A DNA stretch of 64,000 nt from Cladosporium halotolerans (taxonomy: Eukaryota), in NCBI RefSeq assembly GCF_011745625.1, contig NW_027191478.1:124001-188000 (forward strand). The letters are read 5' to 3'. Shown here one piece after another: positions 7,706 to 64,000 of the stretch (the first letter of the stretch is position 1; each line of letters starts with the position of its first letter). The notes under the pieces are model-generated. The model was not told the origin of the DNA. It ran no database searches and saw nothing but the letters and a program-made list of their open reading frames with translations. The translations under genes were made by a program, and so were the position numbers.

Positions 7706-8941
7706 ATGGAAGCTATCAAGAATGCCATTGGTCTGGGCACGACCGCCGACCAGCAAGGTCGTGAACCTGTCAGCGGTGTAACTGGCAGCGGAACAGCAGG
7801 CGAGCCTTACGATCAGGGCAATGCCGAGGGTACGTTCGCTTTTCTGCCTAGAGCTGCCTGTATGAGACGATCAAACGCTAACGAATGGCTTAGAGCCCAG
7901 CGTAGGCGGAAAGGCACCTCAGCAGACTGGTGAGTTTGATCACGGCTGTTTGAGTGTGAAAGTAAGAACCAGCTAACAACTCATTCAGACCCTGCAAACG
8001 ACTACTCTACCACTCCGAACGTCGCTTCCACCACCAACACGACTACCAGTGGTAAGTCTACCAGCACACCGGCCGAGCTCTCCAGCGCCGGCACCACCAC
8101 TGGTACCAGCACCACCACCACCACCACCACCGAGCCCCAGCAGTCGAACTCGACCGCAGACGCTCCACCCCAGCAAGGCGGCATTGGTTCCAACTCATGG
8201 TTCAGCACCGCCATCCCCTTCATCGGCGGCAAGAGCAACAATGCCGCAACATCCAACACCGACACCTCCACCACCAACCAAACCACCTCAGAGCAACAAC
8301 CCACCGCAACCTCTGACGAAGCCCCGACCCTCTCCCACGCAGCCTCCCACCCGCCCAACCACCTCCCAACCAACGTCCCCAAAGGCCACAGCACTGACCT
8401 GGCCCCCACAGACCCCTCCCTGACAACAGCAACCAGCAGCCCCTCCAGCGATCCCATGCACGCGACGCAGCCCATCCCGAACGCCAGCGCCGGCACCGGC
8501 GCGCCCTCGCACTCGCTGCCGCCCAGCAAAGCCTCCATCGCGCCCGTCGACAAGCCAGACCACAGCAACGCGCCGCTCAAACCGGCCGCCAAAGGCAGCG
8601 AGCACAGCGGCATCAACCCGGACGCGATCCCGCTGGCGGGCGGCAAGAAGATCGGCGAAGACGCGTACGAGGAGCGCAAGAGCTTCTCGGCCGAGGGGGC
8701 CGCGGCTGGCGTGGGCGCCGGTGGACTGGGCGGCGAGACGGGCGCGAACACGGCGCGGAACGTGGGCACTGCTGGCGGGTTGGGGAGCACGGCTGGGCTG
8801 GAGAAGGAGAAGGAGAGGGAGAGTGTGGATTCGGGCGCGGGCGCGTCGACGGCGTCGCCGTCGGAGTCGACGTCGTCGTCTGGGCACAAGAAGAAGCATA
8901 GTCTGGTTGAGAAGATTAAGGAGAAGGTTCACAAGCACTGA
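7706..8941 (+). CDS. Low-complexity Thr/Ser/Gly-rich hydrophilic protein, probably stress-related
   Basis: Exons 7706-7829, 7894-7929 and 7989-8941 are in frame. N-terminal EPVSGVTGSGTAGEPYDQGN motif; poly-Thr run; C-terminus HKKKHSLVEKIKEKVHKH. Confidence 0.75.
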
Positions 8942-9487
8942 GATAGGGGAGAACTGGAGTGAGGATAGTCGGCGATTGCGGGATGTTTTGTTTGGAGACG
9001 GCACACCGAAGGAGTAACGATAGGACGATTTGATACCTTACTTTGTTATTCACTGAATGTTTCACCGTTTGCTCAAATTGCGATACTCATGCACATATAT
9101 CTTTATGCTCGTGACGTGAATGCATGTATCTACTGCTCTTCCACTCATCTTTCGCTTTTGAATGTCCATTCAATCAATGGAACTCCTCGCTTTTTGTCGA
9201 CCGAAGAAATGCAGTTGCGAGTAAAAGAAAAAAAGCGATCCCCTTTTATATGCCAGCAGCTAGCGCGTTGATCTTTCCCATCGTATGCTTGAGCCCAAAG
9301 CGGAACTAGAACTCCATCGGGCTTCTCGTGGTGCTCTGCAAGTATTCCCTCTTTCCGCGAGTGGCGCCATGGTCGCCGTCCGCTTTTCACACGACCATGC
9401 CGCGAGAGATAATCCAGAGCCTCATCAAGAGCCGCAGAGCATCTTACCTTTATCCCCCCATCCTACCAGCGTTGTTTCCAACCTCGT

Positions 9488-10693
9488 TTACGCACCCTCC
9501 TGCTTCTCAATAATCTCCCTGTTCAGCGTAATCTCCTCCAGAATCTTATCCGCGCCCTTCGCAACCAGCATCCTCGCAACCTCAATGCCAAACTCCTCGG
9601 CGTCCTCCCTCGACGCAATCCGCCTCTGCACGCTCACCTCCGCCGCCTTCTGCCCGTCCAGACTGACCACGATCGCCCGCACGTCCAGCTCGTCCGTCAG
9701 CCCATCGCTGACGTCGTCGCGCGCCGCCGCGTTCGTCGAAGTCGTCATGCCCATCTGCGAGCCCGTCGGCTCCTGCGCCACACCCGTAAGGTGGTGGTAC
9801 TCTTCCGCGGGCTTGACGCCGACGCCGACGCCCGTGCCTGCGTTGCTCGTCAGCGAGGTCTTCTTCGACAGCCAGGAGGTCTCGACGCCGATCGGCACGC
9901 TGCAGCCGCCCTCGAGGGTGCGCAGGACGCCGCGCTCGACGAGGGCGGCGCGCATCGTGCGCTCGCAGACGATGGGCGCGAGGAGCTTCTTGGTCCGCTC
10001 GTCGGCGGACTTGATCTCGACGCCTAGTGCTCCTTGGCCGACGGCGTGCAGCATGCCGCCGTTGTCTTTGCTGAGGTAGGAGGTGATGCGGTCGGTCAGG
10101 CCGAGGCGCTCGAGGCCCGCGACGGCGATGACGATGGCGCTGTACTCGCTGTCGGGGTCGTCGAGCTTGGCCAGGCGGGTGCCGATGTTGCCGCGGACGT
10201 CGGCGAAGGCGAGGTGCGGGAAGTGGCGCTTGAGCTGGGCGACGCGGCGGAGGGAGCTGGTGCCGACGACGGCGCCGGAGGGGAGGTCGGCGAGAGTGCG
10301 GATGGAGGCGGCGAGGGTGGGTTTGACGACGAGGGCGTCGCGAGGGTCGTTGCGCGCGGTCACAGCCCCGAGTGAGCAGTCGGCGGGGAGCTGCGTGGGC
10401 ATGTCCTTGAGCGAGTGGACGATGAAGTCGAGCTCGCCGGCCTGGAGCTTGAGTTCCAGCTCGGCGGTCCAGAGCGATTTCTCGTTGAATTTGTACAGGG
10501 CGGTTTTGAGGTCGTTGTCGGCCGTCGTGGCCATGGCGTGGATCTCAAAGTTGTGTGTGGGCCAGTGCTTTTTCAGTTGGCTGACGATCTGGTCGGTTTG
10601 CACGCGGGCGAGGAGGGAGCGGCGGGTGCCAACGTGGAAGGTCTCGGTGGTGGTAGAGGCATCGTTGGAGGTGTCCATGGCGGCGGAGGCCAT
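9488..10693 (-). CDS. HEM3: Porphobilinogen deaminase (hydroxymethylbilane synthase)
   Basis: GTRRSLLARVQT, VHSLKDMPT, GTSSLRRVAQL, RGNIGTRLAKLD, AVGQGALG, and the cofactor Cys in LEGGCSVPIG. Intronless. Confidence 0.97.
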   Translation of the reverse strand: MASAAMDTSNDASTTTETFHVGTRRSLLARVQTDQIVSQLKKHWPTHNFEIHAMATTADNDLKTALYKFNEKSLWTAELELKLQAGELDFIVHSLKDMPTQLPADCSLGAVTARNDPRDALVVKPTLAASIRTLADLPSGAVVGTSSLRRVAQLKRHFPHLAFADVRGNIGTRLAKLDDPDSEYSAIVIAVAGLERLGLTDRITSYLSKDNGGMLHAVGQGALGVEIKSADERTKKLLAPIVCERTMRAALVERGVLRTLEGGCSVPIGVETSWLSKKTSLTSNAGTGVGVGVKPAEEYHHLTGVAQEPTGSQMGMTTSTNAAARDDVSDGLTDELDVRAIVVSLDGQKAAEVSVQRRIASREDAEEFGIEVARMLVAKGADKILEEITLNREIIEKQEGA

Positions 10694-11482
10694 GATTGCG
10701 GCGTGCGTGGTGGGAGGTTCGGTGCTAGGTGGAGGTGAAGAAACGAGTTGGAGCGACGGACGGTGGCGTGGATGTCAATGCGGATGTGGATGAGATAAGA
10801 TTCAGCGACGTTGGCGGGGTGGATGGAGGGGCTGTTTCTCGCATTCCGTTCCGTGGGCTTGAGCTCAAGATTTCGCCAGGTGCCGGCCGGAGCAGGGCCC
10901 GGCGGCGGCTGCCAAACGTCATGCCCGCCGCCCGTTTCTCGTGCCCTGAATGCCCTGTGATTTGATTAGATCGCCATCAACTTGCCTCCCCTCCTGCGGA
11001 AAAACACCCCGGTTGCAGCATGCGCCGTCTGATCCCACTCAAGCGGCGCGAGATGGGTCCAGCAGCAGCGGCCTCTGGCATTTCATCTCGCTGCCAAAGC
11101 TGAAACAAGGCGCTAGGAGAACGGCTTGCTCGGCCAGCCACATGGCATCGTCTGCAGGGATCCTCTCCATGTCTCGCTTGATGCGACCTGCGCCCGGCTT
11201 CCTACCTACCTGGACTCCAGTATCCGTATCAGCAAACACTGTCTTACACCCTGTGATCGAACGTGCTCGCACCCGGCCCTCTGAATTTTCATTGTTCACT
11301 AGAGACTGCCTTAGACGGCCTTTGTTGGCCAGCGAGCCTGGAACCTAACCTCAAACAAAGATCCGCAACACTCCAGAGCATACCACGCAGAAGCAAACAT
11401 ACACCCACGATATAACCTCTCACTTGACCACCCGCAAACTCACCACTCTCCCAAGGCACATCCACAACACCAGACTACCAAA

Positions 11483-12590: not shown

Positions 12591-15032
12591 CTACAAAACC
12601 CCCAACAACCTCAAAGCCCCATCCTCGCTCGCAACAGCAAGCTCCCGCACCTGCTCACTCTCACCGTCACCCTTCCGACACGGTCGCCATCTCAAACTCG
12701 TCACAGCCCTGGCGGGCCCCAGATCTCTCCTCACAGCCTCCACCTTCGCACCTTCCCACCCTTCACCGTCCACATCCACACTCACAATCCCTATCCGCCC
12801 CTGCTCCGTACCAGACGCCATCTGCACCACCCCACCAGCAATAGCAGGCGCGAATGCCAGCGCCGTCACAGGCGCCTCGACCGGCATCGTCTTGACAAGC
12901 TCGACATCCTCAGCCGTCACGCGCCAGACCTTGACAGACTTGTCACGTCCCGCAGTCGCAAACACCCCGCCAGAAGGCGCCCACGCGCAGTCGAGGATCA
13001 TGCGCGAATGCCCCTTAGGATTCGCCTTGCGGAGCGCGTAAGCGTGCTCCGACCCCTCGGCACTCCGCTCGAAAAGCGCCCACTGCCGGTCACGGCCGAC
13101 GGACAGCAAGAACCTGTCGTCCGGCGAGAATGCGAGGCTAGTGACAGTGAGGGTGTGGGCGGCGAGCGGCGGGCGAATCTCGCGCCAATCGCGCGTCTCG
13201 TACAGGCGGATGACGGCGTGGTCGAGGCTGCTGGCCTTGCAAGCGGTGGCGATGAGCGAGCCGGTGGCGTTGGCGGCGACGCAGCTGATTTCGTAGCCGT
13301 GGCCGTAGAGTTTCTCGTGCTCGGGCCAGAGGGTGTGGCGGGCGAGGTGGTCTTCGACGGGGGGCTGGGAGAGGGTGAGGGTGGAAGCGGGGACTATTGA
13401 GGAGGTGGTTGGGTCGCCGGAGTCGGTTCTGGGATTGAGGGAGGCGGTGGTGGGGTCTGCGGAGGGTTCGGGGGTGGTGGTGTCGTCTACGGCGGTGATG
13501 GCTTTGTTGGAGAGGCCGAGGACGGGGATGTTGGCTGCGTCGGGGAGGGCGAGGTCTTCTTCGGAGATGGTGTCTTTGTTGCCGGAGAGGAGGGAGAGGA
13601 GAGCGTGGGTTGCTTTGGGTTTATTAAAGACGCGCAGGAGCTTCTCTTCGGCTCCAGAGACGAATTGGTGAGGGGTTAAAGTGGTGATGCAGTTGAGGTC
13701 GTAGCCATGGATTTGGGGTCTTGCTACTTCGTGCCATGACTTAGTGCCGTCTCTCTTCCATTCGCCATACAGCCGAGTCGTCTGGTCCAGTCCTGTGGAG
13801 AGCAAGTAAGAGCCATCAGGTGCCCAAGCGACGCTCTGCACCTCTTGTGTGTGTCCACTGATGCCCGGCTGCTGCAACCATGAATCACTTGCCGCGTCGT
13901 ATGCCCATCGTCTCCAGCTTCCAGTCCGCCCTAAACTGACAACAGCTTTTCCTTCCGGTTGCCACAGCCCAATCCAGAAGCCACCAGTACTTCCTGTTGC
14001 TGTGGTCGAACCCTTCTGTGAGCTGATCTCTCCTAGTCTTGTCTGGCAAACCCACAAGCCCGAAGCCTCCTCAATTGACCACATTGACAGCGAGTTGTCC
14101 GCTGAAGCGGTCATTAAGGTCGATGGCTCGCCACTTTTCGAAGGGGCCCATCGCGCCGAGTAAATCCAGTCCTCATGCCCGACAAGCAACGCCTCAAAAG
14201 TCACCGCGTATTGGTCCGCAGCACTGCCAACCCTATGCGCTTTGTTGGACAGAGATTTCTTCACCGGCTCGATTCCAGACACCCCGGCTCCCCCGTCAGC
14301 CTCAGCATCATCCCCACGCCTAAAACGCCACAAACGCACATATTTGTCTTGACTCGCAGAAGCCAGTAACAAATCATTGCCAGACTCAGCCAAAAAGTCT
14401 AACGACCGCACCCATCCCTCGTGCCCGGAAAGCGTGGCTTGAAGTTCGAACTGATCGCCCGCCTGGACGTAGATTTGCACGACAGCCGTCGTTCCGGCGA
14501 CTGCAAGAACCGTCTCGCCGCTGGGTAGTTTTGCAAGTGCTGTTGCCAGTGGCAGAAATCGAGGTTTGAGTGAAATCGCTTGCACAAGCTCTATCTTCTC
14601 GCCGCCTTCCTCCAGCTGCCAGATCCTGACCGTCCCGTCTGCAGCCCCAGATGCAAAGACGCCCGTTCCAGGTAGGGTAGCGATCGTATTGACCGCGCTC
14701 GAATGGTCCTTTAAACACTGTGACTCCTCGAACGACGGTACGGACGAATCAGCGTCAGTCGTCTGTCGCCATACCCGGACTGTATTGTCGCTTGCGCCAG
14801 TAATGATAAATCTCCGGTCATCGAAATCCAGGATTTTCACTGCATTCACTGCATCCGTATGCCCAGCCAGAAGTGCCCAAATGCCGCTGGTTTTCTCATC
14901 GTCCGGGTTCCAAAGAGCGACGTTGATTCCTGCTCCGAAGGCGAGAAGACCTGGTGTCCAGTCTGCTGAGGACGGGTGGCGATTGCCGCCCGCGGCAATA
15001 TATTCTAATTGCGCCCGAGCATCTGGAGTCAT
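12591..15032 (-). CDS. ELP2: Elongator complex subunit 2 (WD40 repeats)
   Basis: WHEVARPQIHGYDLNC, VSGAEEKLLRVF, ANIPVLGLSNKA, EDHLARHTLWPEHEKLYGHGYE. Likely start is MTPDARAQ at 15032. Confidence 0.95.
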   Translation of the reverse strand: MTPDARAQLEYIAAGGNRHPSSADWTPGLLAFGAGINVALWNPDDEKTSGIWALLAGHTDAVNAVKILDFDDRRFIITGASDNTVRVWRQTTDADSSVPSFEESQCLKDHSSAVNTIATLPGTGVFASGAADGTVRIWQLEEGGEKIELVQAISLKPRFLPLATALAKLPSGETVLAVAGTTAVVQIYVQAGDQFELQATLSGHEGWVRSLDFLAESGNDLLLASASQDKYVRLWRFRRGDDAEADGGAGVSGIEPVKKSLSNKAHRVGSAADQYAVTFEALLVGHEDWIYSARWAPSKSGEPSTLMTASADNSLSMWSIEEASGLWVCQTRLGEISSQKGSTTATGSTGGFWIGLWQPEGKAVVSLGRTGSWRRWAYDAASDSWLQQPGISGHTQEVQSVAWAPDGSYLLSTGLDQTTRLYGEWKRDGTKSWHEVARPQIHGYDLNCITTLTPHQFVSGAEEKLLRVFNKPKATHALLSLLSGNKDTISEEDLALPDAANIPVLGLSNKAITAVDDTTTPEPSADPTTASLNPRTDSGDPTTSSIVPASTLTLSQPPVEDHLARHTLWPEHEKLYGHGYEISCVAANATGSLIATACKASSLDHAVIRLYETRDWREIRPPLAAHTLTVTSLAFSPDDRFLLSVGRDRQWALFERSAEGSEHAYALRKANPKGHSRMILDCAWAPSGGVFATAGRDKSVKVWRVTAEDVELVKTMPVEAPVTALAFAPAIAGGVVQMASGTEQGRIGIVSVDVDGEGWEGAKVEAVRRDLGPARAVTSLRWRPCRKGDGESEQVRELAVASEDGALRLLGVL

Positions 15033-15417
15033 GGTATTACAGAATTTTTCCCTAAGACTCTCATGAACCCTCTCGTTGATATGACCGTCGTTCAAAAATC
15101 CATGATCGCCAAGGCGCTATGCCTTTTTGGGAATGCGCTGTCTAGCGCCCGTCTCATACGCGTTGTAGTACGGTACTATAGTACATTTTCCTCGTTCCTC
15201 ACTTGATACTTATGCACGCTAGGGACTGCGAATTATAGTCTCTGTTCAGGCGGCCTGGGGCTTGAGGCAGGCGTTGCCAGAGGCCCGCACCCTCGCTTAA
15301 TCTCTTGACATTTCTGCGGCTCGAACTATGCCGAGACACCGTATCTTCCTTTGTTGTTGCTTCTGATTCCTGATTAACTGCGGACAACGTCTCAACTTCG
15401 GGTACAGCCTTGACATA

Positions 15418-15784
15418 ATGGACTGCGCTCTTCTTGCCGATGGTCGCCGGATCGATGTAGCAAGCTTGATTGGCGATGGTATAGATGGCTTCATCATCCG
15501 TGAGGGATGCCACGTTGTGGAAAATTCCCAAGCTCTACGGACGAATACAGCCCGATGTGACGATCGAGGCCGACAGTGACAACGAATTGCATCTCGGGCA
15601 CTTGGGCAACGAGAAGCAAGTGTATGCACGATTGCAGGGGGTGGCAGAGGTTGCCAGATGCCTCGAACAAACAAGCAATGGGATCCTGCTGGAGTATTAT
15701 GTGAACGGGTCGTTGGCTGATTACGTTGCTTCCAAAGAGCCACCATCCATCCATTATGGGTGGGATTTCGTGGAGCCTGCATAA
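15418..15784 (+). pseudogene. Truncated, frameshifted protein-kinase-like relic
   Basis: Frame 1 gives LIGDGIDGFIIREGCHVV (Gly loop). After a +1 shift at ~15520 it reads KIPK..EKQVYARL..GILLEYYVNGSLADY (beta3 Lys, alphaC Glu, hinge). No catalytic loop or DFG follows. Confidence 0.65.
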
Positions 15785-57127: not shown

Positions 57128-60100
57128 ATGCAAATGGAGCGCCAGCGTGAGCGCGAGCTCGCCAAGTGCGTTACAGTAACACCATCATCTGCGCACGCCC
57201 GTAGCGTATGGCTGATTCCCGACCGACAGGTATTTTCGGAGCGCTTCCATTGAGCCCGTGCGTGCTGGGGTCGAGCGTGCTATTGCAGCCGGAGCTCAGC
57301 GGTCCAAAGACGCCACCCTCACTGCGCTTGCGCAGCTCGGAGCGCTCAAGTTGCAGTGTGAGCGGTCGTTCATTTCCATAATTGACCAATCGCACCAATA
57401 TATCATCGGCGAGGCCACCAGAACACATTCGCTGCAAAAAGATGCGGCGGCCTCGCTTGACGACTCGCTGTACCTGGGTGTTCGCGCGCTGGAACTGCAC
57501 TGGGGCGTGTGTCCGACTACCATCCAAGTCTTCACGGGCGTTCGCAAGAGCATTTCCACCGAGAACGTCTCCGCCGACCAGTCCCAATTTGTGATCCGCG
57601 ACTTCACACGTGAGGCGACCTATCGGGACCGCGAATACATTGCAGGATGGTATGATCAGCCCTGGTGCTGCCTTCAATCTCCGCGCTGATGCATTTCTCT
57701 CCAGGCCGCACATGCGTTCGTACGCAGAGGTGCCTCTAAAGACCCAGACAGGCAGCGTGATCGGCTCTTATTGCGTTGTCGACACCAAGCCGCGGTCATA
57801 TTCACCTCTCGATATCGAATCTCTCACTGAAATCGCCGATTCGATCATGGGCCACCTCGACTTGCTGCGCATCAAGCAAGACCATGAAAGGGCGCAGAAA
57901 TTGGTACATGGGCTGAGCTCTTTCGTGAGAGCCAGTCTCGATCCAAATGCTGGTGGGGAGCCAGTCTTACCCATCTTGCAGAGTCAAGACACGTCCCCTC
58001 ACGCGGAGATTGATGGTCGATTCAGCGCAGCCGCTCCTCCAGATCTGGGCGCGGCAAATAGTTTTGCGCCAACACAGTCTACTGAATCTAGAGCTCCGTT
58101 TGAGGCAGAGGCACTATCAATAAATCTAGAGAAGCCCCTCAGTCGCTTGGACCTCGACGAAGAAGCCGTCATGGAGTCCAAACCAGAACGCCAGACAGAT
58201 CCAATCTCACAAGATTTGCAAACACCATCAGACGGTATGGTGGCAGACTCCCACAGCTTGACGGTTTCAGTGAAGCAGCAAAAGCCGGAGCCAGCCGAAT
58301 CCGGAGATGACGCGGTCTTTTCCAAGGTTGCTGATCTGGCGTGCCGGGGTAACGATGTAGACGGTGTCCTCATCCTGGATTCGGAAGTCGACGAATCGTT
58401 CGAAAGCACGAAAGACACATTCTCACCCTTCAGTCCGCGTGGGCAAGACGACACTGGATACTTTAGAGACCCTGGATACTTGAGATCAGAATTGATGTGC
58501 AAGCAACTAGGGCTGGCGTTAAATGCCAAAGGCGATGGTGATTCTGATAGAAGGCGACCAAAGACTAGAAGCATACCCGCAGCCATGGTCCGCAAACTTC
58601 TCGAACAGCACCCTGCAGGAACTATTCTTACGAGAGAAGATGACGCGCCGGCATTGGACCAGCGCATTAAGTCCTCTGCACATGGATCGGATCTTACGCC
58701 GACCACTCCTCAAGCATACGGTGCGATAGACACACTGTTCGAGTGCCTGGGAAGCCCGCTCTCGGTGGTTTTGGCCCCCATGTGGGGCGCAAACCATCGG
58801 AAGTGGTCTCTCTGCATGATCTGTTGGACCTCTGATCGCTCGAGGACGTTCGACAACGACGATATCTCGCTACTCAGTGCTTTGAACAATAGCATCGTTG
58901 CGGACATAGCACGAAAAGACGCAATCTCGACTTTCCAGACAAAGAATGATTTCATGTCCACGATCTCGCATGAACTCCGTTCTCCTCTGCATGGCATACT
59001 GGCCAGCGTGGAATTGCTTGAAGAGAAGCGAAACGACTCAGAGGCCAAAGCTTTTCTACGAAATATACAGAGCTGCGGGACCACGCTTCTGGACACCATG
59101 GATCAGTTGCTGGAATTTACAGAACTCAACAGCGTAGAGGCGCATATCAAGTCTGTAGAAAGTGCTGCAGACGTAGAGACGCCTACTTCGGCCACGTCTG
59201 CATCGAGGAAAACCAGCGACATCTCTACCACGCTAGTACTTGCAAATCTTGGAGCTCTGGTCGAAGAGGTTGTAGTCAGCATGGAGATAGGTCATGCCTA
59301 CAAACAATCACACAACCAGGCGATGAAGATCGAGAGGAGAGGCTCAACTTCTGGCTTTTCTCCTGTTGAGCTGGTCCCTGTCACGACGTTGCTCACGATT
59401 GATCCTCGTGCCGCAAGACCTGTGCAACTGCAAGTCGGAGCTCTCCGACGAATCATCATGGTTCTTTGCTCCAACTCGCTGCGGTTCACGTCGCGTGGAC
59501 ACATTGAAATCGACGTTTCCCTGCTCAGCGAAAACGAACAATCACATGGCCAAGCTATCAGACTCAGCGTGAGGGATTCCGGCAGAGGAATTGCTCGGGA
59601 ATATCAGGAAAGCCGCTTGTTCGATCCGTTCTCACAAGAACACCCCGTCCAGGAGGGCACAGGTCTGGGTTTGCACATCGCCCGACGACTCGTTCGGGAA
59701 CACAAGGGATTCTTCGACGTCAGGAGTGAGATTGGCGTCGGCACTGTCATGGAAGTCATCATACCCTTTGGTGACAAGATGATGCTCGAAAATCCCTCCG
59801 ACGGCACAGACGTCTATCTACCTAAAAGCCTTGTCACTCGATTGGAAGGACTCAGCGTCTGCCTGCACCAAAGCTTGCGTCTGCCCGAGACTTCCAAATT
59901 ACATTCGCCCCTGGATCTCCATGATTCAACAGAGACGGTGCTGGCACGATCGCTATGTATAACTTTATCCGAATGCTTCGGCATGAAAATCGTCAGAGAA
60001 GATCAGGCACCGGACGTCTGGATTGAGAGCGATAGAGGTGAACTTTTCATTTCGACCTCCCAGCGATGCGCCAACTGCCCAGGCCTTGAAGTGAAAGCAC

Positions 60101-60895
60101 CGTTAGTGTCTATCTCAACCCCTCTCGAGGACATCTGTACTGATTTATCCCAGCATTTCCCCTAAAGCCGTTCTCGCGACCCTAGTGCACGTCCTAGGTG
60201 CCTACAGCGACCTCGACGACACTGCACGGCATGTCCTGCGCCACTTTGCGCCGAACAAGATCTCCAATAAGGAATCACCCCCTGCCGTACAGCAACCAGC
60301 CCGTGCCATGCCGGAGATGTCTGACCATCCAATCAATGACGCTGAAAGTCCTCAAAACGAAGGCTCCGGCGAGGTTCCGGAGTCCGCCGTGCAGACTTCC
60401 AAGAACTTCCTTCTCGTCGACGACAACCAAATCAACCTCAAGGTGAGCTGAAAGAGAAATGCAACCGGTTGTTACATGTCAAAGCTAATCGTGGAACCCT
60501 CTCTTTATTAGGTACTGGGCACTTGCATCTCAAAGATGGGCTACGCACACACATACGCCAACGACGGCCAAGCTGCTGTAGAAGCGTTCCAGCAACAGAG
60601 TTCAGGGCCATACAGCGTGGTTTTCATGGACCTATCCATGCCCGTTCTTGATGGTTTCGAGGCTACCAAGCGCATGCGGAAATTAGAGATCGACGAGGGA
60701 TGGCCGCGCGCTAGAATTGTCGCCATCTCGGCTTTCGGGACAGAAGTGAGCAAAGGGAAAGCAAAAGAGTGCGGCTGTGATCTGTTCCTTGCGAAGCCGG
60801 TGAGTATGAAGAAGGTGAAGGATATGGTTCGGCTGTGGGAGGAGGAAGCTCTCGAAGCTCCTTCGCACGAGGTAGGAAACGCTATTCAAAGCTGA
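57128..60895 (+). CDS. Hybrid sensor histidine kinase (GAF-HisKA-HATPase_c-REC); start uncertain
   Basis: GAF (PHMRSYAEVPL..IGSYCVVD), H-box ISHELRSPLHGILAS, DSGRGI, LFDPFSQE, GTGLGLHI, REC LLVDDNQINLK..VFMDLSMPVLDG..FLAKPV. About four introns. Confidence 0.92.
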
Positions 60896-61075
60896 AGAGA
60901 GCTCGCTGGAACGGGAACACCCATCAACGCAGTCAGTATGACAATGAGAAAGGCTATGAAACTTCATCTACAAGCCCAGGCCATCGATCGTTTCTTGTGC
61001 GACAGCATTCTCATGTTGCGAGGCCAGCCTCGAACGCGATCCATTTCGCCTTTCAACACACGTCGTGTACACCAT

Positions 61076-61831
61076 TCATCGAGCAGCTCCTATGCGTTCA
61101 ACAGCTGGCTGGATCCATCGATACTTGAATTGCCTTGTTCTCTCCCGAAATGTAGGCTCGGATCTGGCTCTCCTGAAAAAGTAAACTCCTGGTCCCCGTC
61201 CATAGACTCGGTCATTCTGGCCGAGCGAGTGCCGCTTTACAATGGGCTCCATAGTCATCGAAGTTCCCTCTATGGCCGGCCTCAAATACCTGGCGATGTA
61301 TGCTGCTGATACTCCCACGGTCCAAGCATCTCTGGCAGCCTGGGACATCCGCCGGGCGTATTCCTCTCTTATCTGACCCGTGTTTTGGTCCGGACTGATG
61401 TACACCAGCGCGAGTATCTTCTTGTTCCTAGGCTCGAAGAGGCCATCTTCAATGCCCCCGCGAAGTCGAGAGAAAACATTGTCGCCGGCCTGCAACGCCA
61501 GCGAAAGCTGCGCGATCTTCATCCCTCCACTGAAGATCTTATCAAGGTACACGGGGCACTCGAATTTCTCGTACAGACCCCGGCGCACGCCCTCTTTCCG
61601 GTCCAGCGTTTCCACGTCTTTCGGGTAGACCGAAAAGACCAGGCCTTCGACCCAATGTCCTTCGCGGGAACGCACGACGTTCGCAACGCCGCGCGTGTTG
61701 ATCTGCCACCGATGGCCGTGTAGGATGGCTGTGCCTTCGAATAGGCTTGTCGGACAACGCTCGGCCATCTGCTCGATCAGCATGTTGCTGCCGAACGCGA
61801 AATAATACCTCTTCCGGTGAACTTTTAGCAT
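61076..61831 (-). CDS. AIG2-like gamma-glutamylcyclotransferase (GGCT fold)
   Basis: YFAFGSNM...QMAERCP, WQINTRGVANV, VEGLVF, and the catalytic-type Glu in LDRKEG. Confidence 0.88.
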   Translation of the reverse strand: MLKVHRKRYYFAFGSNMLIEQMAERCPTSLFEGTAILHGHRWQINTRGVANVVRSREGHWVEGLVFSVYPKDVETLDRKEGVRRGLYEKFECPVYLDKIFSGGMKIAQLSLALQAGDNVFSRLRGGIEDGLFEPRNKKILALVYISPDQNTGQIREEYARRMSQAARDAWTVGVSAAYIARYLRPAIEGTSMTMEPIVKRHSLGQNDRVYGRGPGVYFFRRARSEPTFRERTRQFKYRWIQPAVERIGAAR

Positions 61832-62620
61832 GTTGCCGAAGTCGGTTCAAGCTTCTCGTTGCCAGCTGCCAGTCACGGACGGATATGGTCGATAGTTATG
61901 GCCGCAACATCACGTCGACAAAGCTTGGGTTTAAAGCTGAGGTCTATCAGGCTGAGGTCGACGAGGCTGTTGCGAAGATGGCTGTAAGCTGCATCAGCCT
62001 TGCAGCAGCATGCAGCCGTCGGCTGATGAGCTGTACCTCCATGGCTGAGGCCACGGTACTACCGTGACTCACGATGAAGGCATTGCTTGTGAAGGTACTA
62101 ATACAAAGTCCCGCTCAGGCAGGTCTCGAGTAGCTTCATCGGGTGTAGCTAGGCAGCATTGTGGCAGTGGTCTTGATCACACACCAACTCAGGCTCTTCT
62201 TCCCGCAGCGGTTTGCCTTGACGCTTCATTGCTGCGGCTCACCGGCGGGTTGGGTACGCTGACCTGGCGAGTCTATTTGACATTTGCTCGACGCTCAGTC
62301 ACATTTCACTTGCCAGCTGAGGCGAAGCAAGGCAATCAGGCAAAGCATGACCAGAGCGGCCTCTTGTTCGTCCCGCATCTGGCCAATAGCCAAGGTCTCC
62401 ATGGACTGTGAGCATAGCAACGCCTTCCAGCCTGAGGCGAAACGTAGTCAGGTGGCGAACATGTTCTCTGGGTCGGCAGGACTACGCCTCTCCCGGTCAC
62501 TAAGTCACTCTTCTGATCGCGCGAGATAGCAATGCACTATGAATACAGGAATGGCCTTACAGTAGGTCTTGGTGTCTGCGTAGCACCTCTTTTTGCCAAA
62601 CACTTCCATACTCCTCGCAC

Positions 62621-64000
62621 ATGATGGCAGCAGCCATGACAACAATTTCCTATCATTTTGGCGTCGAGATTGAGATCATGGCGAAACCACATCAGATTCG
62701 AGAGACACCCCTCAACCAGCTCCTCTATTGGGAGAAGCTAGGAAAGGCTCTTGAGAAACGTGGCATCAATGTAGAGGTTGACAAGCCACATGGGCCCTAC
62801 CGTAAGAACAAAGAGCGCTATACCCGAGGATGGTGGATTACGAGAGACGGTTCGCTCGTCCGTCACCAAGATGAAAGTGTGTATGAATCCCGAAACGAAC
62901 AAGACATGACCGAACAGTCAGCTGATGTTTGGATCGAAAGTCGCATTCGAAGCGGTATCTCCAATCCTGAACACTAGCAACGGGTGGGAGCACCAAATCG
63001 ACATGTTCTGGAAGGCCTACAGCAAAGTCTTCCATCAGCCTCGCTCCCAGTCAGAATCGTACTGTGGAGGCCATATCCACGTCTCGTCCTCATCACAGGA
63101 GTGGAGCACGGATCAGCTCAGGAACATCGCCTCTGGCATCTTCCACTTCGAGCATTTCATCGAAGACATGATTCCCGCCTCTCGTCAAAACAACCAGTTC
63201 TGCAAGAAGAACTCTGCGAACTCCAGATTCTTGAGGTCATGTCGGGGAAATCCCCGGAAGTTCTTCGAGAAAATCTCAGATGCAAGCCGCGGAGAGATCT
63301 GGGGGCTGATGCAGAATGATCGCAAGGTCCTTTGGAACTTCGCACACGTCGTCAAGGGCGGGACGGGCTCGATCGAGTTCCGTGGCGGCCGATGTTTCCG
63401 AGGCCCGCAACGAACCAAGGCCTGGATTGCATTCGCAGTTGGGTACATGCACTTGCTGCAGGGCATGGTGAGAAGTACCTCGGATGCAGATCGCATTACT
63501 TTGATGCTAACTTCTACAAGCCCTTCTGGGAGTACAAAGTGCACAGGCGTGAGGTCTACTCCACCGAAGTCCTGTATGAGAAGATCAAAGCATCCGCCAG
63601 CAAGTTCTACATGGACCAGTACCTCCCTCCTCGATATACTCAGTTGAACGAATCAGAAAGCTGGTCGGTCAGTCCCCGGTTGCGGCATGTTTGGTACCAT
63701 TTAGTATGCGAACTGACCTTATTCAGGAATAGGTGGGAAGCCTCTGATGAAGAAGACACGTTGGATGCCGAAGATACGGGACGCGTAACACTTCTTCTGT
63801 CGCGCTTTTTGCAGTTCGCGTTCGGTATTGCGGTCGCGTGCGTTTACGGGATAGACAGATCTCGGTCGCTACACTCGGAGTCGCCGAGGGGCATCGAATG
63901 GCTCTTCGCCATGGTGGTGGCCATCATGTCCACGTCGACGGTGGGGGCTTACGGGTGTTTAGGAGTTTTGACAGATCGGTTTCACCAGCACCGAGGGTTT
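62621..64000 (+). CDS. Amidoligase_2 (COOH-NH2 ligase) family protein; 3' end uncertain, frame open to the window end
   Basis: FGVEIE, WWITRDGSL, EAVSPIL, CGGHIHVS, SR.NN.FC..N, RKVLWNF, GSIEFR. Introns 62877-62940 and 63468-63520. Confidence 0.87.

Follow-up and report, generated by a model that had tools for sequence, protein, structure and literature searches.

Why should a gene for a GGCT-fold cyclotransferase and a gene for an Amidoligase_2 protein stand head-to-head in a fungal genome? The question is raised by the last ~3 kb of a 64,000-nt stretch (the window) of Cladosporium halotolerans contig NW_027191478.1, where the two genes are located on opposite strands with their start codons 789 bp (first ATG) or 804 bp (annotated ATG) apart, confirming the ~790 bp given in an earlier note made from this DNA. 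We hold it to be slightly better than an even bet (about 0.55) that they form a conserved two-gene module of filamentous ascomycetes making and unmaking a gamma-glutamyl amide. Both genes would be transcribed divergently from a shared spacer of ~0.7–1.0 kb. The Amidoligase_2 protein, presumably an ATP-dependent carboxylate-amine ligase of the glutamine synthetase (GS) fold, would join the gamma-carboxyl group of glutamate (or of a very similar acid) to an amine, and the cyclotransferase would then release the gamma-glutamyl group as 5-oxoproline and free the amine. The most likely target would be a small molecule, for which the gamma-glutamyl group might serve as a temporary handle or protecting group; alternatively, the cyclotransferase may keep a gamma-glutamylated metabolite at a low concentration.

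Structure of the locus and folds of the two proteins

The ligase gene model was taken from the best database match, P0001 (C. halotolerans WHR41_06756), with which the spliced and translated window sequence agrees in 306/306 residues, all introns being of the GT..AG type. The following features were assigned (coordinates of the window):

61076–61831, minus strand: GGCT coding sequence, intronless, 251 aa, C7orf24-type; Pfam AIG2_2 and GGACT above cut-off; covered by a continuous contig of sequencing run X2
61832–62635, no strand: divergent intergenic spacer, presumed bidirectional promoter; holds a plus-strand intron (62064–62118)
62636–62876, plus strand: Amidoligase_2 exon 1 (FGVEIEI strand, WWITRDGS motif); other in-frame ATG at 62621
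62877–62940, plus strand: intron 1, 64 nt, GTGTGT..AAG; skipped in contigs of runs X2 and X4
62941–63467, plus strand: Amidoligase_2 exon 2 (EAVSP, HIH, DRKVLWNF and IEFRGG motifs); PF12224 match, invariant columns
63468–63520, plus strand: intron 2, 53 nt, GTGAGA..AAG; skipped in X2 and X4 contigs
63521–63667, plus strand: Amidoligase_2 exon 3 (C-terminal helices, ...LNESESWS); spliced match to P0001
63668–63726, plus strand: intron 3, 59 nt, GTCAGT..CAG; skipped in X2 and X4 contigs; second GT at 63664
63727–63732, plus strand: exon 4 of the short form (Glu and stop codon); 306/306 match to P0001
63728–64000, plus strand: beginning of a membrane domain of the multi-pass type, truncated at the window end and sharing the reading frame of exon 3; assigned from tblastn and hydropathy

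The pair had previously been placed at 61076–64000; its left part stands (GGCT at 61076–61831), whereas the coding sequence of the short-form ligase stops at 63732 and not at 64000.

The GGCT open reading frame (ORF) matches the Pfam families AIG2_2 (E 1.9e-8, 35.1 bits, cut-off 27) and GGACT (E 2.4e-7, 31.8 bits, cut-off 22.8), and a profile of the fungal GGCT family recognizes human GGCT (E 6.9e-14, HMMER). The AlphaFold2 (AF2) model has a pLDDT of 78.9 overall, of at least 88 over most of residues 11–190 and of 65–74 over residues 121–140. Its top Foldseek match is human GGCT 3cry (E 5.5e-10, TMt 0.71), on which it superposes along the whole human chain (183 columns, root-mean-square deviation 2.1 Å), with weaker matches to yeast ChaC-type (E 1e-5) and GGACT (E 2e-4) proteins. 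Judged by this model, the fold of the window cyclotransferase is complete and nearest to C7orf24-type human GGCT, not to GGACT or ChaC. The folded domain comprises approximately residues 1–190, and the tail (196–251) is predicted to be disordered. Residues Y10, F11, A12, S15 and N16 of the YFAFGSN motif as well as E80-G81 are invariant in 15/15 aligned sequences. Glu98 of human GGCT, which we take to be the catalytic residue, falls on fungal E80 (LDRKEGV) in the HMMER alignment; E62 in 'VEG', considered as the catalytic Glu, was ruled out by the same alignment. Fold, YGSN-type motif and the Glu98-aligned Glu are thus common to the fungal protein and human GGCT (C7orf24; 2pn7, 3cry, 2rbh). Differences are the low identity (~20%), a 20-residue insert (~120–140) and a 55-residue disordered basic tail in the fungal protein, and the dedicated ligase partner of the fungal gene.

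For the ligase, exon 2 alone matches PF12224 with E 2.4e-11 and the full protein P0001 with E 7.7e-16 (59.1 bits, cut-off 22; profile positions 3–242 of 245). The claim that both genes encode their domains with intact motifs was therefore corroborated. Foldseek matches of the AF2 model (pLDDT 88.3, pTM 0.90) at E ≤ 0.001 are gamma-glutamylmethylamide synthetase 9qur and YbdK 1r8g, followed by type III and type I glutamine synthetases, 1-naphthylamine GS and the depupylase Dop. All of the top matches (9qur, 1r8g, 3o6x, 8s59, 8wwu, 4b0r) are GS-fold proteins, with probabilities of 0.92–1.0 and modest TM scores of 0.36–0.47, and the model thereby gives the ligase a glutamine-synthetase-like fold. 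Judged by their titles, these proteins make or break amides of the glutamate gamma-carboxyl group. Among solved structures, no sequence match to the ligase was found at E ≤ 1. Among 13 fungal ligases, S87, E226, R228 and LWNF never vary and E84 and H125 hardly do, every ligase with a complete N-terminus has the GVEIE strand, and the GVEIE, EAVSP, HIH, LWNF and IEFRGG motifs are kept across the fungal family. These conserved positions may correspond to the acidic, His and Arg residues of the GS-type active site.

Four sequencing runs, none of which is recorded as RNA, aligned to 60950–63800. In contigs of X2 and X4, both from one study, the three ligase introns (64, 53 and 59 nt) are skipped exactly, and these contigs therefore derive from spliced RNA. 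The ligase thus possesses spliceosomal introns and is a eukaryotic gene, as had been argued before, its spliced product being P0001. The GGCT ORF is covered in X2 and X4 without any joint, fitting an intronless gene. In the spacer, the plus-strand intron (62064–62118, 55 nt, GT..AG) is documented by a joint from 62063 to 62119 in one X4 contig covering 61836–62365. This spliced contig extends back to 61836, five bases from the GGCT start codon, and plus-strand RNA therefore spans almost all of the spacer; this RNA may belong to the ligase messenger as a long spliced leader or be a transcript of its own. With regard to co-expression, which had been suggested as a check, coverage of both genes in X2 and X4 speaks weakly in favour, whereas the contigs carry no expression levels, transcript starts or ends and show presence in the same samples only. 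No exact 7–9-mer was common to six such spacers beyond shuffled controls. Two further signals were discarded: the single unspliced contig of run X1, labelled metatranscriptomic, looks like DNA, and a joint from 61177 to 61544 (AA..TC, side 31) probably arose during assembly.

Conservation of the pair in fungi

Metagenome contigs of the Joint Genome Institute (JGI) were scanned with an alignment of 13 fungal ligases, and the 21 fungal-type loci obtained were then searched with the cyclotransferase and ligase proteins and with profiles of both. A divergent GGCT gene is located 717–1006 bp upstream of the ligase in 8 of the 21 loci (L001–L007, L009). One locus (L012) holds a GGCT 3' fragment downstream only, and ten are too short upstream to judge pairing. 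Some loci are redundant: L002–L005 represent the locus of one organism, the second pair of L003 recurs in L009 at 98%, and L013 and L014 are the same. With each such group counted once, 5 of 7 non-redundant ligase genes with at least 1.1 kb upstream are paired, in addition to the window. All 14 ORF matches to the GGCT profile in 214,832 bases (window and 21 loci) adjoin an amidoligase; none was found away from a ligase in this sequence, the remaining 61 kb of the window included. Adjacent locus tags were also recorded in the named genomes of Oculimacula yallundae (VTL71DRAFT_1169/1168) and Hypoxylon texense (Hte_000404/000403). For five further candidate pairs (including Hypoxylon cercidicola and Hypomontagnella) the evidence is weaker, consisting in equal lengths of the contigs that carry the two genes. 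Overall, the divergent layout is kept in at least three fungal classes at 36–52% protein identity. Linkage in other fungi, on which the earlier note had made its proposal chiefly depend, is thus present in the eight loci and two named genomes, and the pairing of the two genes exceeds chance.

Two loci contain the pair in tandem. L003 encodes a GGCT at 8213–9682 with a ligase at 9809–11021 and a second GGCT at 12828–13772 with a ligase at 14470–15616; L007 (49–3670) harbours two tandem pairs in the same order. Between the first pairs of L003 and L007, the ligases are 62% and the GGCTs ~52% identical, as compared to ~44% for the ligases and 37–40% for the GGCTs between the paralogues within L003. 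Since orthologues are closer to each other than paralogues are, the duplication predates the split of the two organisms and copied both genes. Such a joint duplication would be hard to explain unless both genes work together.

Fungal-type ligases (84 in the profile search) occur in Xylariales, Sordariales, Fusarium, Beauveria, Ophiostoma, several Dothideomycetes, Leotiomycetes and one Aspergillus. For the ligase family as a whole, a HMMER search over 1.84 billion representatives yielded 594 clusters (50% identity) at E ≤ 0.001, 176 of them at E ≤ 1e-10. A 'putative amidoligase enzyme' domain is listed as enriched in Sclerotinia and Botrytis in one report (PMC3158057), and a putative amidoligase is listed as lost in 4/12 asexual Epichloe strains in another, where it is treated together with genes upregulated in stromata (PMC8982410). 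As a side observation, Beauveria bassiana possesses two GGCT relatives with adjacent tags (MY4038_009990/MY4038_009991) on one 11,955-base contig.

Bacterial and phage counterparts

Comparative genomics by Iyer, Abhiman, Burroughs and Aravind (2009, Mol Biosyst) reportedly predicted neighbourhoods of Amidoligase_2 with AIG2/GGACT and amidotransferase-like proteins in bacteria and phages. Thermodesulfobacteriota were chosen for comparison because the best bacterial relatives of the GGCT and the top Atlas cluster of the ligase come from this phylum. Among 401 genomes searched for PF12224, 20 carry the family; ~6 kb per side were taken where the contig allowed (L123–L142), and 95 of 146 ORFs plus 10 more were scanned. 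The ligase was found next to Peptidase_C26 in 5/20 loci (L126, L127, L130, L133, L134), to a class-II amidotransferase in 6/20 (GATase_6 in L123, L124, L125, L128; GATase_4 in L139, L141), to NlpC/P60 in 3/20 (L136–L138) and to GGACT in 3/20 (L128, L129, L135), with 4/20 loci lacking a clear partner. These neighbour types largely track ligase subclades in the tree described below. Members of all four partner families cleave amide bonds of glutamine or glutamyl groups, and it is chiefly this that speaks, indirectly, for the ligase making a gamma-glutamyl product. The operon in L128 (ligase, DUF5049, GATase_6, GGACT, AlpA-like helix-turn-helix (HTH) protein) looks like part of a mobile element. 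In the gene table given for the LUZ24-like phage UFV-P2, Amidoligase_2, an amidotransferase, an ATP-grasp and an AIG2 protein share one early region (PMC3890496). Together with the three GGACT-containing bacterial loci, this agrees with the statement that Amidoligase_2 genes occur beside AIG2/GGACT genes in bacteria and phages.

The fungal pair is alike to these cassettes in the genetic linkage of both protein families. It differs in that the fungal genes contain introns and are transcribed divergently instead of forming an operon, that no conserved amidotransferase, DUF5049 or ATP-grasp partner was found in fungi (11 sources; flanks partly Pfam-scanned), and that the fungal cyclotransferase represents another branch of the fold. 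A careful maximum-likelihood ligase tree comprising 13 fungal, 19 bacterial (one phylum) and 1 phage sequence united the fungal ligases in one clade (100/100); its sister, with a long-branch warning, is the clade of L123–L125, L128 and L135 (91/91), which is associated with mobile elements (resolvase, AlpA-like HTH). The phage protein family phrog_2443 matches both the L128 ligase (1.8e-83) and the fungal ligase (2.8e-8), and the latter also matches phrog_2520 (1e-11). A tblastn search of phages retrieved only six distant records (24–28% identity), and pattern scans with the fungal ligase alignment revealed no relative in bacterial genomes or viral contigs. No GGCT is annotated near the ligase of the Porphyromonas phage locus.

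For the cyclotransferase, the profile of the fungal GGCT gave no match at E ≤ 0.1 on L128 and L135 and one of 0.0029 on L129. It has 498 bacterial relatives. No amidoligase was detected within 6 kb of the best 80 of these 498, proteins of 150 aa that stand alone in differing gene surroundings (0/80; tblastn and profile, the profile recognizing the phage ligase in L022 as positive control with 1.5e-15), and PF12224 was absent from 5/5 searched genomes of these bacteria. Mycobacterial relatives (L044, 5992–7062; L055, 5992–7053) are fused to Gamma_PGA_hydro, a poly-gamma-glutamate hydrolase domain; as an aside, these fusions adjoin luciferase-like monooxygenase and Nramp genes. Likewise in passing, several stand-alone bacterial relatives were seen beside defence-type genes (L024, 3871–4932; L028, 1–1197; L034, 3346–5880; L032, 6717–7160), namely for a BrxL-like ATPase, an ApeA-like HEPN protein, a restriction-modification methylase and a PIN-domain protein.

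On common descent of the fungal pair from a bacterial or phage cassette the evidence points both ways: the ligase tree and the phrog_2443 matches speak for it, the distance of the fungal GGCT from the cassette cyclotransferases against it. Either the cyclotransferase partner may have been replaced after transfer, or fungi may have reassembled the same combination. We regard the pair as the fungal form of an amidoligase-cyclotransferase theme that is known, though uncharacterised, from phages and bacteria. New here are the different cyclotransferase branch, the tandem duplication of the pair and, possibly, a membrane-anchored form of the ligase in the Cladosporium lineage. A fungal ligase-cyclotransferase pair was not found described in the full-text literature searched. 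A Klebsiella 'amidoligase' (PMC13419641) encountered there is an ATP-grasp enzyme and irrelevant here.

Proposed function, competing explanations and surroundings

GmaS, 1-naphthylamine GS and YbdK possess a GS-like fold as does the fungal ligase, and the pairing logic of GS-fold ligases in amine metabolism is alike: PuuA/PuuD and AtdA1/AtdA2 each combine a GS-fold gamma-glutamyl ligase with a releasing hydrolase, that is, a ligase with an enzyme undoing the gamma-glutamyl amide. In contrast, the structural matches reach a TM of only 0.43–0.47, no sequence match to a solved structure connects these ligases with the fungal one, and the latter is much smaller (306 aa) and is paired with a cyclotransferase in place of a hydrolase. 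GliK, a GGCT acting on glutathione adducts and encoded in a large nonribosomal peptide synthetase (NRPS) cluster for an epipolythiodioxopiperazine, is a comparable case of a fungal enzyme with the GGCT fold that serves one particular pathway. It differs in its NRPS cluster, none of which was seen among the 31 of 75 window ORFs (at least 170 aa each) covered by the Pfam scan, and in that the partner here is a ligase. Fungal FluG consists of an amidohydrolase fused to a GS-like ligase, and in the account consulted its gamma-glutamylated intermediate is not identified (PMC6478659).

Reversible tagging, in which the ligase writes and the cyclotransferase erases, fits everything testable in this study, yet it derives from folds and neighbours. 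Both proteins look cytosolic in this species. Several points weigh against it. Use of glutamate by the ligase is judged from fold and neighbours only, and no substrate of any Amidoligase_2 enzyme is reported in the full-text literature searched. A ligase and a cyclotransferase acting on the same bond would run a futile, ATP-burning cycle unless an unlinked third step intervenes, and an all-against-all ORF comparison of 11 fungal sources revealed no third shared gene. Two informative loci, L011 (in which only ligase residues 78–245 match) and L014, contain no GGCT. The GGCT family search retrieved 89 proteins as compared to 84 in the ligase profile search; many of the former come from species missing from the ligase list, and some family members therefore probably work alone. 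Of the best 150 relatives, 18 long ones were tested and none proved to be a ligase-GGCT fusion, and co-expression is at best weakly indicated by contigs of a single study.

The alternative that fares best, though we regard it as rather doubtful, is that the two enzymes catalyse two steps of one biosynthetic route: the ligase would add a gamma-glutamyl group, unlinked enzymes would modify the product, and the cyclotransferase would remove the group again or form a lactam product. Butirosin biosynthesis with BtrJ/BtrG follows such a protecting-group logic. Folds and linkage speak for this explanation just as for the making and unmaking of a gamma-glutamyl amide; it would also resolve the problem of the futile cycle and has a fungal precedent in the gamma-glutamylated intermediate of FluG (PMC6478659). 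However, polyketide synthase (PKS), NRPS and terpene cyclase genes were all missing from the scanned window ORFs, and no third gene is conserved across the fungal loci.

Less probable again is a glutamylation directed at a protein or peptide and reversed by the cyclotransferase, perhaps in fungal conflict or allorecognition. HET-domain genes lie 1.7 kb (L014, 4779–7238) and 6 kb (L009, 9131–11080) from ligases, and the Neopestalotiopsis model P0144 joins a partial HET domain (25–116) to a ligase (280–505). HET genes are very numerous in these fungi, and such neighbours could be chance and P0144 a merged gene model. Also in line with a protein target, in the ligase relative P0201 (461 aa) the ligase domain is followed by zinc fingers of the C2H2 and BED types, 19% of members in Atlas clusters of diatom Amidoligase_2 proteins contain YEATS or RanBP zinc fingers, and the nearest sampled bacterial clade resides on mobile elements and includes the strong phrog_2443 match (1.8e-83). 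On the other hand, no small target ORF was seen at the locus, and the cyclotransferase is nearer in structure to human GGCT (E 5.5e-10) than to GGACT (2e-4), human GGCT acting on free gamma-glutamyl amino acids and GGACT on gamma-glutamyl-lysine.

A membrane domain encoded just downstream of the ligase, beyond the observed splice and fused to the ligase in the gene models of four relatives, is new here. Four Dothideomycete models exceed 306 aa (P0114, 496 aa; P0138, 531 aa; P0143, 492 aa; P0139, 387 aa); after the ligase they continue with a linker containing PPPAY motifs and then 1–3 hydrophobic helices in a simple hydropathy scan, of which truncated P0139 has one. The C-terminal domain of P0138 matches MARVEL only weakly and below the cut-off (E 5.5e-4). 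Positions 63728–64000 of the window are homologous to the C-terminal domain of P0114, P0138 and P0143, with two hydrophobic helices visible; in tblastn, the C-terminal parts alone matched this segment with E 2e-7 (P0114) and 3e-6 (P0138). The domain is also encoded in locus L010 (809–1207). Removal of intron 3 (59 nt) leads to a stop two codons further on and the 306-aa soluble form, while retention of the intron or use of the GT at 63664, four bases upstream, keeps the frame open to the window end; the X2 contig continues ~1.1 kb beyond 63800. The two GT donors four bases apart could thus switch between ligase forms. Carried further, the pair might be a eukaryotic counterpart of the phage and mobile-element cassette for reversible gamma-glutamyl tagging at a membrane: a long ligase form would be anchored by the MARVEL-like domain in the Cladosporium lineage and related rock fungi, donor choice at intron 3 would select the soluble or anchored form, and the target would be a membrane-bound amine (lipid head group or membrane protein). 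We consider this elaborate version improbable.

That nothing but a common promoter region connects the genes and their functions are unrelated, for instance with the GGCT in general gamma-glutamyl or glutathione turnover, would suit the GGCT relatives in many fungi outside the ligase match lists and the lack of fusions, but is very improbable in view of a layout kept in at least three classes at 36–52% identity, duplication of the pair as a unit, 14/14 GGCT matches beside a ligase in 214.8 kb, and linkage of the same two folds in bacteria and phages.

If the two genes indeed make and unmake a gamma-glutamyl amide, the pairing would help to explain why the ligase fold is repeatedly combined with enzymes cutting glutamyl amides. 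A two-gene module in culturable, genetically tractable fungi offers a simpler route to this chemistry than crowded phage cassettes. Should the product be a gamma-glutamylated metabolite or protein, it would be a second fungal case, beside FluG, of regulatory or protective gamma-glutamyl intermediates.

The surroundings of the pair, described as accessory-looking in the earlier note, turned out to be ordinary: GC content is even (0.50–0.64 across the window, 0.52–0.54 in the last 6 kb), neighbours are unremarkable and no Pfam family of mobile elements, transposons included, was detected among the scanned ORFs. PADLOC models, from a bacterial library, gave no match. Genes identified in the window code for porphobilinogen deaminase, eIF4E, TFIIIC, cyclophilin, BRCT and arrestin proteins as well as OPT and amino-acid transporters, an ubiquitin hydrolase, an MFS transporter and a carboxylesterase. 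A hybrid histidine kinase gene (57595–60895, plus strand), converging on the GGCT gene, encodes GAF, HisKA and HATPase_c domains followed by a receiver domain. It is not kept beside the pair in other loci, and its reading frame changes at ~60165–60536, probably owing to an intron.

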